NCBI GenBank assembly: GCA_014905635.1
Contig: JABVCE010000046.1
Coordinates: 62,001-120,161, forward strand
Direction of reading: 5' to 3'
DNA from: Scenedesmus sp. PABB004
Lineage: Eukaryota
Length of the DNA stretch: 58,161 nucleotides
The first letter of the stretch is position 1; each line of letters opens with the position of its first letter. Below, one piece after another: positions 48,174 to 58,161 of the stretch. The translations under genes and the position numbers were made by a program. Under the pieces are notes generated by a model. That model worked only from the letters and a program-made list of their open reading frames with translations, ran no database searches and had not been told where the DNA came from.

Positions 48174-51189
<3,016 letters not shown>

Positions 51190-51536: not shown

Positions 51537-54500
51537 ATGGCGCTGCGCCCGGTGCTGGTGCTGACGGGGCTGGCGCTGGCAGCGGCAGCTCTGCCAGTGG
51601 CGGACCTGCCGACGGCCACCGCGCGCGGCGCGACGGCGGCGGCGGCCGCACGGCTGGCTGCCAGCGCGGCCGGCGCGCCCGCCGCGGACGGCGCCGCGGC
51701 GGCCAACGCCAGCGCCGCCGCCGGCGTCGGCGGCCTCGCCGGCGAGCTGGTGCCCGAGGCGGAGGCGATGATCGCGTGGATCCGGGCGGCCGGCGGCGAG
51801 GTGAACGTCGCCGTGCGGCACACGCCCGGCGGCGGCAGGACGACGTTCGCCCCGCGCGACTTTGTCGACGGTGCGCGGGGCGAGGCGGGGCGAGGCGGGG
51901 CGGCAGGCAGCGCACAGCGCGGCCCGCGGCGCCCGACCGCCGCGCGGCCCTCGCCCCCGGCGCCGCCTGCAGGCGACGTGCTGGCGAAGATCCCGCTGTC
52001 AATCTGCTACGTGGCGTCGACCAAGCCGCAGGCAGAGCCCGTGAGCGCAGACACCGCCGCGGCCGGCTCGTCGCCGTGCGCACACGCGCGCGCGCGCGCC
52101 CTCACCCGCCCGCCGCGGCCGTCCGCGCGCCGCGCAGGCCGCCGCCGCGAAGCTGCTGGCGGACATGGCCGACCCGGCCAGCCCGCACGCGCCCTACCTC
52201 GCGGTGCTGCCGCCGCGGCGGGACGTGTGGAGCCTGCACAACTTCCCGCCCGCCTACCTGCCCCTGATCCAGCACAACGACACCGTGCGCCCCGCGCCCG
52301 CGCCCGCGCCCGCCCGCGCCCGCGCCGGCCCGCGCTCGGCGGCGCCGCAGCCCGCGCCCGCCCGCGCCCGCGCACGGGCGCGGCGCGGCCGCCGCCGCGC
52401 GGCCGCCGCCGCGCGACCATCGCGGCGGCCAGGCGCGGCGAGCCTCCCCGCCCGCCCCTGTCCGCGGTCATCAGGAGTGGGTCATCAACGCGACGCAGGC
52501 GCAGCTCGCGCGGGGGTGGGCGGCGCTGGGCCCGCCGCCCGGCGTGGGCCTCGGCGAGCTGGCGTACGCGATGAGCCTGGTGCGTCACAGCCGGCTGTGT
52601 GTGTGTGTGCGTGTGCGTGTGCGTGAGCGTGTGCGTGTGCGTGTGCGTGTGCGTGTGCGTGTGCGTGTGCGTGTGCGTGTGCGTGTGCGTGTGCGTGTGC
52701 GTGTGGCAGCTGCTGGCGTGCGTGCGTGCCGGGCGGGCCGCCGGCGCAGGCCGCCGCCGCCTGTTAAGGACCCCCTCGCCGCGCGTCCCGCCCTGTGTGT
52801 GTCAGTTCATGACGCGCCTCTTCCACTTCCCTGACAAGGGCCTCGTCATGGTGCCCCTCCTCGACCTCACAAACCATCGGTGCGGCCGGCGGCGGCGGCG
52901 GTGGCAGCGCAGCGCAAGCGGCGGCCGCTCCACCGTGCGGGCCGCCCACGCGCCCCGCGCCCGCGCGCCCGCGCCCGCGCGCCGCCGCCGCCGCAGCAAC
53001 GACTGCCCCCACACGCACCCCAAGGAGCCCTGCGCGCCGGGCAGCGCCGAGGAGTGCATCGTGTGGCGCGCGCGCGAGGGCGTGGCGGCGGGCGCCGAGG
53101 TGTGCAACGCGTATCGCTTCATGCTCAACGACCGCAGCCTGCTGCAGTACGGCTTCCTCGTCACGGTGACCCGCGGCGGCGGTGACCGAGGGCGCGGCGG
53201 CGGGGATGCCACACAGCGCCCAGCGCGCGCGCCTGGGCGGAGCGGGGCGCAGCCTCCGCCCCGCGCGCCCGGGTGGCCGCCGACGCCGCCGCTGCTGCCA
53301 CGCGCGCCGCGGCGCAGCGTGGGCCCGTGTCGTCGCAGCTGTCTGGCATCGACCGGCACGACTTCAACCCCGCGACGCCCTGGGGCGACGAGATCGTCAC
53401 GGGGCAGCGCAGCGGGCCCGTGCGCTTCGAGGGTGAGAGAGGCGGGAGGGGGGGGGGGGGCGCAGCGCAGCGCCCGCGCAGCCGGCCGGCCAGCCGCCGA
53501 CACATCTCCAAGGAGCGCGCGCCGCGCCGCCCGCGCGCAGGCCAGCTGCCCGAGGTCACGGCGGAGGTGGCGCGGCTGCAGGCGCGCCTGCAGCACCTCT
53601 CCACGGGCGACGCCGCGGCGACGGCCGCGCGCCCAGACCCGAGCGACGCCGACGGCGACCTGCTTGGGCAGCTGCTGGCCTGGCGCGCGCAGCGCAAGGC
53701 GACCATGCAGGCCGAGGTCGAGCGCCTGCGCCGCATGGCAGCGCGGCTGGAGGCCGACGAGGCGGCGCGGCGCGCTGGCGCGGCGCCGGCGGCGACGCAG
53801 GCGGCCTACGACGACCTGGGCGCGTGGCTGGCGGCGGAGGGCGCACAGGTGGGGGCGGCGCGCTGCCGGGCGGCCGGCGCCCGGCGATCCCAGCAACGCC
53901 AGGGCTGGCTCAGCCGCTGGCGTGTGCCCCGCCGCAGGTCAACGTGGCCGTCCGGCCGTCGGTTGCCGGCAGTGCCGACGCGGTCGGCGAGGGCTGCGCC
54001 GAGGAGCGTGGCGCCGCAGCGCTCGCCGCCGCGCCCAGCGGCGTGTTCACCAGCGGGCCCGTGCCTGAGGGCGGGCTGCTGGCGGCGATCCCTCTCAACG
54101 CCACGGTCGCGCCCGCGCCCGGCAACGATGGCCTGCTGGTGCGCGGCCAGCTGGCGCGCTGTCCAACCGCGGCAGCACAGCACGTCTGCGCTGCGCCTGG
54201 CGCGGACGCCGCGGCGGCGCTGCGCCCAGCGCTGACCGCTCCCCTCCCCCGGCTGCCCCCCCCCCCCTCCTGCAGGACTTGGCGGTGCAGCTCATGCTGG
54301 ACCTACACGCCCTGCACACCGGCGGCGCGCCCGCTGCCATCCCTGGGTCCAACAGCACGCTGCCGGGCTGGCGCGCCTTCCTTGCCAGCCTGCCGCCCCT
54401 GGGCGCCGCGCACGGGGTGTACAGCGTGCCGCGGTCCTACCTGCCGGTCGTGCAGCACCCGCAGCTGGTGCGCGAGCACGGGCGGGCGGCGCGGCTGCTG

Positions 54501-57350
54501 CGCCGCCTCGCCGCCGCGCTGCGCTGCGCGGCCGTGGCGTCGGCCAGGTTCGCGGCGTTGCTGCCGCCGTCCGCAGGAGCGCCACATCCTGGCTGCCCAG
54601 GTGCTGCTCTTCCAGGCGTTTGACCGCGCGCGGGCGGCGCTGGACGGCGTGGACGACACGCTCACACTGCGCGAGGCGGCGCACGCCGCAAACCTGGTGC
54701 GCGCGTGGTCCGGCGACCCTCCGGCAGCGCACGCGCGCGCTGCCGCGGCCGGCCCGCAGACGCTCACGCGCGCCGCGCCCGCGTCCGCTGCAGCTCGGCG
54801 CGCGGCTGGTGGGCTACGAGGGCGGCAGCCGCGTGGTGCCGCTGCTGGCGCACGCCAACCCCGCGCTCAGCGCCGGCTGCCCGCACGCCGACTACGTCGG
54901 GCCTTGCCCCGGCGCCGGGGGCGAGCTCTGCGTGCACTGGGTCGCCGGCGCGCCGCTGCCGGCGGGCGCGGAGGTGTGTGTGGCGCTCGGCCACCTGCTG
55001 CCCGACGCGGCGGTGCTGCAGTTTGGCGCCGCGCTGGCCGACGAGGGCGGCGAGCTGCAGCTGCTGGGCATGGACCGGCACGACTTCAACCCTGCCGCGC
55101 CGTTTGCCGCCAGCTACGAGTCGCCGCCAGCCTTCACAGGTGGGGTGGCGGCGCCCGCTGGCCGTCTGCACGGCGCCGCGCCACTGCGCGCGGGGGCTGC
55201 CACTGCGCGCCGCGCGCCGGGCCTTGACCGCCGCCGCGCGCAGGCACCGCCGCGCAAGCGCTCGACGAGGTGGCGCGGCTGGCCAGCATCCACGCCAACC
55301 TCACCGCGCCCGCGGCGGCGGCGGCGGCGGCTGCGGTGCAGCCCGTGGCGCACGACGCCGGCGGCGCGCTGCTGGCGCGGCTGCGCGCGCTGCGCTCGCG
55401 GCGCATCGCGGGGCTCGAGGCTGAGATCGGCCGGCTCATGCGGGCGCACCACTTCAGCAGCGAGCTGGTCGCGCACGCGGCAGACGAGCGCATCAGCGAC
55501 ACCGCACCGGCGCAGCCGCTCGCGGCGTGCGACGCTGGCGCGGGTGATGCGTGGGCGCGCATGCTGTGCTGGATGCGGCTGCATGGCGCCAAGGTGAGTG
55601 CCTGCGCTGCCACTGCCGCCGCCGCTGAGCGGTCAGGTGGCAGCGCGCAGCGCGCGGTGTGTGACCACCCGCGCTCGTCCCCCGCAGGTGAACGTCGAGG
55701 TGCGCGACGTGAGCGCGGCCGAGGGCCGGGCGGTGTTTGCCACGGCCGACATGCAGCGGGGCGACCTGTTGGCGGCCATCCCGCTGGACCTGACATGGAG
55801 CCACACCGCGCACGGCGGCGCGGCGAGCTACGAGCTGAGCGCGGCCAACCTGTGGGCCATGATGGCCGCGCAGCCGCCCAGCCTTCTCGCGCCCTACTTT
55901 GACGCGCTGCCGCGCCGCGACGAGCTGGTCTGCCCGCTCGCGCACGCGGCGGCCGAGTACCTGCCCCTGCTGCAGAGCGCCCCCGCGGTGCGCACTGCGC
56001 GGCGCTCGCAGCCCCGGCGGCCAGGGCGCGGCGGGGTGCGGGCCCGGTGGTGGCTGCGCTCACCCGAGGCTGCGCCTCCCCGCGCGCGCCGCGCAGGAGC
56101 ACTTTGTGGCCGCCTACCAGCAGCGCCTGCGCGACTTCTGGGCGTCGCACGCCGACACGCTGCAGGGCGCCGCGCCGGGCATGACGCGTGAGGACCTCAT
56201 CTACGCGCGCGCCCTGGTGCGGCGCCCCACCCGCGCGCCGCGCAGCTGCCCGCCGGCTCGCGCGCCGACGCGCGCACGTCACCGCCTCTGCCGCGCGCCG
56301 CAGATGTCGACGCGCCTGTTTGCGCACGGCTCGCGCGGCGAGCTGCTCATCCCGCTGCTCGACATGGTGCGGCGCGCGCGGGCGCGCCGGGCGGCCCGAC
56401 GGGCGCCTGCGCGCACGGCGTCTCTCCCCGCGGCCCCCGCCCTGTGCCCACGCCGCTCCGCCTTCCGCCCGCCCGCCCGCCCGCCCACCCGCCCGCCCGC
56501 CCGCAGGCCAACCACCGCAACGTGGGCGGCGTCGCGCGCTGCGCCGCTGCTGGGCGCGGCGTGCTGCGCGGCGCCCTATCGAGCTCGCAGCGCCTCCCTC
56601 ACGCCCGGCGCTCGCCGCCGCGCCTGCCCGCCGCAGGACTGCCCCCACACGCTGAGCACCGAGCCGTGCCCGGGCGACGACGCGCGCGAGTGCCTGATGT
56701 GGCGCGCGGGCGATGCCGTGCGCGCCGGCGGGGAGGTCTGCAACCAGTACCAGCACCTGCTGCAGGACCGCAGCGTGCTGCAATACGGCTTCATGCAGGC
56801 GAGCACCTGGGGCCAGGCGCGCCGCCGGCTGGGCGCGCAAGGCGCTGCAGCCGGCGCGCCCAAACAGCGGGCGCCGCCGAGACTCGCTCGCCGCGGCCCC
56901 GCTCGCCGCTGCCCGCAGGCCTACGACGCGCGCGTTCACGGCCTCGACCGGCACGACTTTAGCGAGGCCAACGGCTTCTGGGCCGCGTACGCGGTTGAGG
57001 GCGGGCCCGACGACTTTGACGGTGCGGCGCACGTGCCGCCCGCGGCGCGCGCGGCGCGCGCTGCGCGCAGCGCCCCGTGCCTTGGCTGAGGGGCTTGCTG
57101 CCCCCGCCCTGGTCCGCCCCGCCGCGCCCTGCCCAGGCACGCACGACGAGGCTGTTGCAGAGCTGGCGAGGCTGCGCAAGCTCGCGGCCGACTTGGCGGC
57201 GGGCGACGACGCAGCGGCGCGCGTGCGGCCGGCGGCGGGCGACCCGGGGGCAAGGTGCTCGCGCTGCTGCGCGGCTGGCGCGAGGCCCGCAAGGCGGCCG
57301 TGGCGCGCGAGGTCGCGCGCTTGGAGATTGTTGCGTCGTTTGCGGAGTGA
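51537..57350 (+). CDS. Signal-peptide-bearing protein with three tandem Rubisco-LSMT-like SET modules
   Basis: Leader MALRPVLVLTGLALAAAALP. Each module has W..G..VNV, G(D).LAxIPL, (P)Y/F...LP, VPLL..NH-like, EVC..Y..D...LQYGF, GxDRHDF and a helical hairpin. Modules are joined in frame within exons. One apparent 1-nt deletion at about 57246-57250. Confidence 0.8.
52596..52704. repeat. (GTGCGT)n / (GT)n microsatellite, intronic
   Basis: Direct reading. Confidence 0.95.
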
Positions 57351-57449: not shown

Positions 57450-58161
57450 TCACCAGCGACCGCGGCGCGCCTTGGCGGCGGCGCGGCAGGGCGCGCAGCG
57501 CTTGGGCAGCGAGAAGCCCTTCTCCTCAAACCACGCCACCTCGCGCGCGTCGAGTGAGAAGGAGTCGCCGCAGGCGCAGCGCGCGGTGTGCGCCGGCGAC
57601 CCGGCGCCGATGCCGCTGCTGCGGCCGCTGTGGAGGCTGACCTCCGCGGGCGGCTCGCACTCGGCCGCCGACGGCTCGGCCGCGGCGTAGCGCTCGGGCC
57701 AGCTTGCGCGCAACAGGTGCAGCATGCTGACGTCGCTGTCTGGCGCCGCCGCGGCGCACAGCTCAATCGCCAGCACCATGCGGTTGAACGAGCGCTCCGC
57801 GGCGCGCCACGCGACGTCGTGCTGCGGCCAGGCGCCCACGGCCGCGACGTCGTCACGCGCTGCAGCCAGGCCTCGCGGCCGCCGGGTCGTCGAGCAGCGC
57901 GTCGAGCGAGGCGTCAGGCTCCACGTGCTCTTCCGGCCAGGTGACTACGCCGGCGGCATCGTCCCACGTCGTGAGCACCTTCCGTCACGGCGCGCTCCCC
58001 GAGGCGCGCGTACACCGCAGCGCGCAGCGGGCGCGCGAGCAGGTGCAGCGAACCCAGGTGGCGGTCAGAGGAGGAGGAGGTGCGCGCGTGACTCGGCCCG
58101 CCTTGGCGGACGCCGCGTACTTGTCGCGCACGCCAACAAAGCGCGCGTTGTCGCCGGCCGC
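57450..58161 (-). CDS. Partial gene ending in a zf-trcl-like zinc-ribbon domain (frame-disrupted)
   Basis: C-terminus RCACGDSFSLDAREVAWFEEKGFSLPKRCAPCR*. Upstream coding-like sequence changes frame around 57850-57885, and the 5' end lies outside the window. Confidence 0.6.

Follow-up and report, generated by a model that had tools for sequence, protein, structure and literature searches.

A putative secretory protein with three SET-domain modules in the green alga Scenedesmus sp. PABB004

To our knowledge, SET-domain methyltransferases are almost entirely nuclear, cytosolic or plastid enzymes. The question raised by a locus of Scenedesmus sp. PABB004 is whether proteins of this fold may also be directed into the secretory pathway of a green alga. 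The DNA analysed (the window) is a stretch of 58,161 nucleotides (assembly GCA_014905635.1, contig JABVCE010000046.1, positions 62,001 to 120,161 of the forward strand), and positions are counted here from its first letter. The gene in question is situated near the end of the window, and the original prediction had described its product as an apparently secreted protein with three SET modules. The reading favoured here, given a probability of roughly 60%, is that of one gene whose product, a putative secretory protein-lysine methyltransferase, has a signal peptide and, behind it, three SETD3/LSMT/SETD6-class modules. The features that carry this reading are as follows.

51537..57350, + strand: whole coding span, start ATG to TGA (mapping of the public protein P0001, with refinement)
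51750..53782, + strand: SET module 1, residues ~72-418 (family profile 260.8 bits)
53801..55482, + strand: SET module 2, residues ~425-806 (family profile 135.5 bits)
55546..57347, + strand: SET module 3, residues ~828-1208 (family profile 252.9 bits)
53541..53848, + strand: bridging exon, from the C-terminal hairpin of module 1 into helix 1 of module 2 (exon mapping, alignment)
55244..55593, + strand: bridging exon, from the module 2 hairpin into helix 1 of module 3 (exon mapping, alignment)

Tandem SET modules, active and degenerate

Using the longest open frame of module 3 as a query, one long protein was retrieved at 99% identity, namely P0001 (KAF8055289.1, 1164 aa), annotated as 'hypothetical protein HT031_006815 [Scenedesmus sp. 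PABB004]'. An exhaustive phmmer search identified 62 relatives at E <= 0.001, most of them exon-sized fragments on algal contigs, with four being complete single-module proteins of 396-452 aa (P0064, P0054, P0017 and P0049). Word-index homologue searches gave 1, 7 and 1 hits, being crowded by low-complexity candidates, while metagenome locus scans with P0001 and a family alignment gave pattern matches and no confirmed relative. The relatives that carry a name all belong to the Sphaeropleales, namely Chromochloris zofingiensis (three paralogues), Tetradesmus obliquus, Raphidocelis subcapitata, Hariotina reticulata and Scenedesmus sp. PABB004 itself, a range that applies to these named relatives, most fragments carrying no name.

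Three modules were found, as predicted. They are pairwise 29-38% identical (BLASTP E 3e-37 to 9e-71) and were each matched by a family profile built from eight single-module relatives, none of them from the window, for which the best of 200 shuffled versions of the protein scored 5.7 bits. A six-frame scan of all 58 kb with this family found matches confined to the + strand at 52045-57347. The cysteine block C-P-H-x5-P-C-x7-C-xx-W is present in triplicate (53004-53066, 54878-54940 and 56640-56702), with each copy followed by EVC (53097, 54971 and 56733) and then by GxDRHDF (53345, 55067 and 56940); these shared motifs lie where they had been described. The description of the modules as being in frame holds after the splicing of approximately 19 introns, with the exception of the last helix, which needs a 1-nt change in a run of five G at 57246-57250.

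The modules are regarded as fused in one frame because in two places a single exon covers both the end of a module and the beginning of the following one. It could alternatively be proposed that the triple architecture is an artefact of the gene model and that two or three single-module genes lie in tandem at the locus, given that the public model is demonstrably imperfect, that the fusion is read from genomic sequence and that the family's genes in Chromochloris and Tetradesmus typically have one module. This explanation is considered highly unlikely: the exons 53541-53848 and 55244-55593 bridge the modules without a stop or intron, a stop, a Met plus leader and an intron are all absent between modules 1 and 2, and neither module 2 nor module 3 possesses a Met and hydrophobic leader of its own. 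Furthermore, P0041 of Hariotina reticulata (Scenedesmaceae) joins two modules, the second of which has a damaged NH motif. The three-module fusion is thus taken to be real as read from the DNA, pending complementary DNA (cDNA) evidence.

Comparison of a profile of eight family members to PDB sequences revealed matches to SETD3 (2.1e-16), LSMT (1.6e-9), SETD6 (3.6e-8) and PAP7/pTAC14 (2e-7). The structure predicted for a relative displayed a SET fold with an N-lobe, a knot-like core and a helical C-lobe, PAP7/pTAC14 being a close structural match. An alignment of P0001 with its relatives, which placed the N-lobes of the relatives on module 1 and their cores on module 3, was left unused for folding. 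The resemblance to LSMT/SETD3-type SET domains suggested originally was in this way borne out by profile and by predicted fold, and assignment of the modules to the SETD3/LSMT/SETD6 class of SET methyltransferases is supported at both of these predictive levels. Structural alignments extend through the C-terminal hairpin to SETD3 residue ~500, and the helical hairpin following GxDRHDF superposes on part of the SETD3 C-lobe, yet no Pfam match to Rubis-subs-bind (PF09273) was found in P0001 or in any of the eight relatives; the hairpin is therefore read as a reduced C-lobe. Pfam SET was matched by six of the eight relatives at E <= 1 (best 2.7e-6) and by P0001 over the full model length in module 3 only. 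It was found in none of 15 raw stop-to-stop open reading frames, due to exon fragmentation.

The original description of three like SET modules needs correcting in one respect. Modules 1 and 3 keep the S-adenosylmethionine (SAM)-binding and catalytic motifs TRLF, D-x-x-NH, EVCNxY and YGF. Module 2, by contrast, has lost the NH and Tyr motifs, with ARLV in the place of TRLF, HANP at D-x-x-NH, Leu where the Tyr would follow EVC and FGA instead of YGF, while it retains GMDRHDF and the full set of four cysteines. It has the appearance of a pseudo-enzyme module. In an alignment of 44 family rows, the N of NH is present in 38, the H in 37 and the Tyr in 42, with most of the rows lacking NH or Tyr being fragments that start at that exon.

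A maximum-likelihood tree paired module 1 with fragment P0023 (support 95/86; 73% identity over 55 residues by BLASTP) and module 2 with fragment P0061 (support 94/83), the latter, its nearest relative, being degenerate at the same positions as module 2. These pairings indicate that the modules are old and that their active/degenerate arrangement is not private to this genome; with P0041 and P0061 taken together, an active-plus-pseudo arrangement seems to be conserved. The three Chromochloris paralogues form a separate clade in the tree, so that the triple protein does not represent their orthologues fused together.

SETD3 is an actin histidine N-methyltransferase, and at the positions of its N255 and W273 the family differs in having Phe and Leu/Val. 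The highest-scoring PDB sequence was the SETD3 N255F/W273A mutant, crystallised with a Lys-substituted actin peptide, at 63.4 bits, with other SETD3 sequences scoring 56.8-58.6 bits. The Phe and Leu/Val substitutions suggest that the pocket of the family is lysine-type rather than histidine-type.

An explanation in which the protein is secretory and not an enzyme was also considered, with the SET modules serving as binding or structural units, for example of a wall or ER (endoplasmic reticulum) scaffold. Such a role would agree with the conservation of module 2 despite its lost catalytic motifs and with the similarly degenerate P0061, and PAP7/pTAC14, according to entry titles, serves the plastid RNA polymerase complex as a structural subunit. 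No documentation of a SAM supply to the green-algal ER lumen was found in the literature covered. The explanation is nevertheless deemed unlikely, given that NH and Tyr are retained in modules 1 and 3 as well as in almost every family row, as would be expected under purifying selection on catalysis.

The secretory methyltransferase reading also draws on the cysteines of the insert, the first copy of which is the following.

53004..53105, + strand: four-cysteine block of module 1, CPH...PC...C..W ... EVC (pattern match, family alignment)

The four columns hold Cys in 42, 44, 44 and 43 of the 44 family rows, the departures being due to one gap and one misaligned fragment. L, N, C and Y occupy the corresponding positions of SETD3, by which the set of four can be regarded as family-specific. 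The His of CPH is variable: among the 43 rows with a residue at this position, 12 have N, T or Q. The predicted model has the cysteines positioned about the beta-hairpin after the NH motif, as well as on the EVC strand, and their retention in the degenerate module 2 argues for a structural role. The four cysteines of each module may form two disulfides or, less likely, a Cys4 zinc site; being invariant, these columns carry no covariation signal in the 44-row alignment.

Leader, C-terminal tails and routing

Signal peptides are recognised here by a hydrophobic core that follows a short or basic n-region and precedes small residues at the -3 and -1 positions of the cleavage site.

51537..51602, + strand: signal-peptide-like leader, residues 1-22 (hydropathy and (-3,-1) rule heuristics)

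The leader of the window protein consists of one Arg, approximately 17 uncharged Leu/Val/Ala-rich residues and then small-residue cleavage candidates. Its Kyte-Doolittle 12-residue (KD12) maximum is 2.48 at residues 6-17, with no other comparably hydrophobic segment in the protein, which bears out the hydrophobic, signal-peptide-like character ascribed to it. The analysis of the protein also listed six N-x-S/T sequons. All five complete N-termini (the window protein, P0064, P0054, P0017 and P0049) were found to possess a basic or short n-region and a hydrophobic core (KD12 2.05-3.02), and all five passed a heuristic script for signal-peptide layout (n-region, h-region of 7-15+ uncharged residues, small residues at -3/-1). 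By these heuristics, classical signal peptides are carried by all four complete single-module relatives, as would be expected if homologues shared the routing proposed originally, and those of relatives from less GC-rich genomes have a textbook look. Basic residues precede the hydrophobic core in four of the five proteins. According to the positive-inside rule, basic residues in this position put the C-terminal bulk of a protein in the lumen, and it is therefore here that the bulk of these proteins is predicted to lie.

The C-termini of the four single-module relatives were identified as KTEL, HSEL, IDEL and HSAL, thus ending in -EL in three of four. According to the accessible part of Raykhel et al. 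2007 (PMC2140024), human proteins with the tails KTEL and QSEL localise to the ER, and among 46 efficient ER motifs, 35 fall outside the PROSITE pattern. Due to the leaders of the relatives, the -EL tails, the basic residues ahead of the core and the invariant cysteines, routing to the secretory pathway is the best reading and is considered probable. The idea of an ER/Golgi/wall family, raised in the original prediction, is accordingly borne by the relatives (signal peptides in all four, -EL in three), while the window protein itself lacks the -EL tail.

The leader might instead be a plastid targeting sequence, with the protein being a triplicated LSMT-like plastid methyltransferase. Green-algal plastids are primary and their transit peptides lack a long uncharged Leu/Val core, which counts against this explanation, as do the textbook signal peptides and the -EL C-termini (three of four) of the relatives. 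The four invariant cysteines fit an oxidising compartment, and the family forms its own group that is weakly detected by Pfam SET. In favour of the plastid are LSMT and PAP7/pTAC14, close relatives by profile and fold that are plastid proteins, along with the Ala/Arg-rich region that follows the hydrophobic core of the leader, and Chlamydomonas LSMT-like proteins are discussed as plastid-targeted in the accessible part of PMC4678213. On balance a plastid destination is judged decidedly unlikely.

A further explanation would have the leader act as an uncleaved signal anchor that holds the protein at the ER membrane and leaves the SET modules on the cytosolic side, where SAM is directly accessible. 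The hydrophobic stretch of P0017, at approximately 30 residues, could be such an anchor. The basic residues ahead of the core in four of the five proteins place the bulk in the lumen by the positive-inside rule, and both the -EL tails and the invariant cysteines would be pointless in the cytosol, making this topology very improbable.

A number of observations weigh against the favoured reading of a secretory methyltransferase. The tails KTEL, HSEL and IDEL all miss what we take to be the strict PROSITE pattern, and the window protein ends in ...SFAE and not in -EL, so that a KDEL-type retrieval signal was not found on it. HSEL and IDEL are not mentioned in the accessible part of PMC2140024. 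The leader call is one of hydropathy and (-3,-1) heuristics in a genome of 78% GC, where Ala-rich N-termini are common, and residues 23-70 are Ala/Arg-rich with a faint likeness to a green-algal transit peptide. To a weak extent, the absence of KAF8055289, WIA24040 and the term 'SET domain' from the main text and one supplement of a Scenedesmus cell-wall proteome (PMC11839794) also counts, this proteome being of another strain and having a small protein list. With regard to the fold, the structure prediction was made for a relative and not for the window protein, the Pfam SET (PF00856) match of P0001 scored 18.2 bits (E 0.0035), below the gathering threshold of 22.4, and a phmmer search of P0001 against PDB sequences gave none at E <= 1. 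Finally, the last hairpin requires a 1-nt frame change, reflecting either a misassembly or a truncated module 3 C-lobe.

Under the favoured reading, a secretory protein-lysine methyltransferase, each module would consist of an N-lobe, a SET core and a shortened helical C-lobe, with a beta-hairpin insert carrying the four cysteines between NH and EVCxxY. The cleavable leader would take the protein into the ER, where the cysteines would cross-link structurally as two disulfides per module or, less likely, bind zinc. Modules 1 and 3 would bind SAM and methylate lysines of proteins that pass through or reside in the secretory pathway, with the pseudo-enzyme module 2 acting as a scaffold or as an additional substrate-binding surface. 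The single-module paralogues of related algae, having KDEL-like -EL tails, are probably retained in the ER, while the triple protein without such a tail may go on to the Golgi, the wall or the medium.

Refined gene model and neighbouring genes

The locus is an intron-rich eukaryotic nuclear gene in a window with a G+C content of 74-82% throughout. The first in-frame ATG is at 51537, in a frame open from 51063, and the stop codon TGA is at 57348-57350. P0001 was reproduced exactly by script from 17 exons within 51537-57089, all of them GT-AG, the donors being of the G|GTGCG/GTGAG type and the acceptors having GCAG at their ends. The refined model comprises 20 coding pieces with approximately 19 introns and encodes approximately 1208 aa, or approximately 1168 aa if 56799-56918 is spliced out. 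G+C at codon positions 1/2/3 is 79/55/94 for the whole refined coding sequence, while that of the introns is flat (83/83/87). The public model P0001 is demonstrably imperfect and the annotation of the locus needs correction, the segments concerned, together with the neighbouring genes, being as follows.

52806..52879, + strand: module 1 SET-core exon (TRLF...NH), skipped by the public annotation (splice sites, family profile, periodicity)
56507..56521, + strand: module 3 micro-exon of 15 nt encoding the NH motif (needed to rebuild P0001; flanks CAG and GTGGGC)
56799..56918, + strand: in-frame 120-nt stretch, 40-aa insert or GC-AG intron (GC..AG ends, flat GC, tandem repeat)
57137..57350, + strand: final helical hairpin of module 3, absent from the public annotation (GTGCGG donor at 57022, CAG acceptor ending at 57136)
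49666-51189, - strand: divergent neighbour of the NAD-dependent epimerase / GDP-mannose-dehydratase family, a nucleotide-sugar enzyme (family matches)
57453-57944, - strand: convergent gene with a zf_Tbcl treble-clef domain (E 2.8e-6)

The exon at 52806-52879 has a CAG acceptor and a GTGCGG donor, joins 52997-53165 via a split Arg codon and was found in the six-frame scan to correspond to family-profile positions 140-164. P0001 instead translates the repeat-rich, intron-like stretch 52908-52996, whose G+C by codon position is 83/93/97 compared to 64/28/88 for the exon, and the tandem repeat at 52942-52989 falls within the intron that the refined model would place here. As the NH motif of module 1 is at the end of this 74-nt exon and that of module 3 lies in a 15-nt micro-exon, intron positions differ between these modules.

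The stretch 56799-56918 has a flat G+C by codon position (85/82/82), contains a tandem repeat at 56885-56914 and was found in the alignment to have no counterpart in single-module relatives. It is more likely to be a GC-AG intron translated by the annotation than a 40-aa insert. Further downstream, the P0001 model passes over the donor at 57022 and continues as far as a stop at 57087, while splicing from 57021 to 57137 yields the first helix of the final hairpin of module 3. The second helix is in a different frame from the first and runs to the TGA, the frame being broken within the run of five G mentioned above. In its shifted frame the second helix corresponds to family-profile positions 289-320 (E 2e-5), and the periodicity of the first and shifted frames (89/59/89 and 78/50/91) contrasts with that of the unshifted continuation (58/76/69). 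The frame break may be either a homopolymer assembly error or a genuine truncation of the module 3 C-lobe.

The divergent dehydratase-family gene begins approximately 400 bp upstream of the SET gene, so close that an additional 5' exon displacing the leader could hardly be accommodated; such an exon had been raised as a possible objection to the original prediction, and an upstream coding exon replacing the leader is unlikely. The two genes have a common promoter region of approximately 400 bp. At the other end, the stop of the convergent gene (~57450) lies approximately 100 nt from that of the SET gene, due to which the 3' untranslated regions of the two genes probably overlap. An extra 3' exon giving the window protein an -EL tail was ruled out: no frame ending in -EL was found within approximately 350 nt downstream of the stop, and the stop of the convergent gene lies in this region.

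Within intron 4, a (GTGTGC)n microsatellite of approximately 18 copies with 97% matches was identified at 52599-52705, and most introns of the SET gene are marked by other simple GC-rich repeats.

Known systems and meaning

The family shares its profile and fold with SETD3, SETD6 and Rubisco LSMT, members of the class that combines SET with a Rubisco-LSMT substrate-binding domain. It differs from these in its N-terminal signal peptide, as predicted, in the four invariant cysteines of the hairpin after NH and in a C-lobe cut to a helical hairpin without a Rubis-subs-bind match, with the window protein further differing by having three modules per chain, the middle one degenerate. PAP7/pTAC14, a subunit of the plastid-encoded RNA polymerase complex, is a single-module plastid protein without the four-cysteine insert, a signal peptide or an -EL tail.

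Diatom-specific SET methyltransferases, termed 'BacSETs', are described in the accessible part of the published account as being co-expressed with cell-wall genes, their proposed targets being wall-related proteins or long-chain polyamines. As published, cell-wall-linked enzymes, they make a premise that SET enzymes never enter the secretory pathway too strong. Both they and the present proteins are lineage-restricted algal SET families, of which the BacSETs are linked to cell-wall formation, with the difference that one is of diatoms and the other of Sphaeropleales green algae, a likeness drawn here by description of the BacSETs and not by sequence. The BacSETs, reportedly the work of Nemoto et al. 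in 2020 in Mar Biotechnol 22:551, are also said to carry ER signal peptides. With P0054 as the query, a language-model look-alike search ranked two diatom clusters at the top (score 0.97), with one of these at 52% Pfam SET, while module 3 of the window protein, used as a query in the same way, retrieved generic SET clusters only; a specific kinship with the BacSETs is a lead and not a result.

A likeness in process is provided by the plant Golgi, for which lumenal SAM-dependent methylation and SAM import via putative transporters are described in the accessible part of 10.1101/2021.07.06.451061. Golgi methyltransferases such as the pectin methyltransferase QUA3 likewise perform SAM-dependent methylation inside the secretory pathway, but these type II membrane proteins belong to another class of fold, and their substrates are polysaccharides and not proteins. 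No description of a green-algal family of signal-peptide-bearing, ER-lumen or secreted SET/lysine methyltransferases was found in the literature. The claim that the architecture was undescribed stands for green algae within the literature searched, with the diatom BacSETs, as far as their accessible description goes, being a partial precedent and the only one found, so that signal-peptide SET families would not be wholly unprecedented.

It is tentatively suggested, at somewhat less than even odds, that the Sphaeropleales possess a lumenal protein-lysine methylation system of their own, made up of ER-retained single-module forms and an exported active/pseudo/active form that would mark secreted or wall proteins. 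If true, this would be a green-algal counterpart of the diatom BacSETs, whether convergent or related, and would imply the import of SAM into the ER/Golgi of these algae. It would place protein methylation inside the green-algal secretory pathway and point to methylated proteins, of the wall or secreted, that are as yet unknown. In addition, the family provides a naturally occurring tandem SET design of the active/pseudo/active kind, and co-regulation of the SET gene with the divergent wall-sugar gene would be worth a look.

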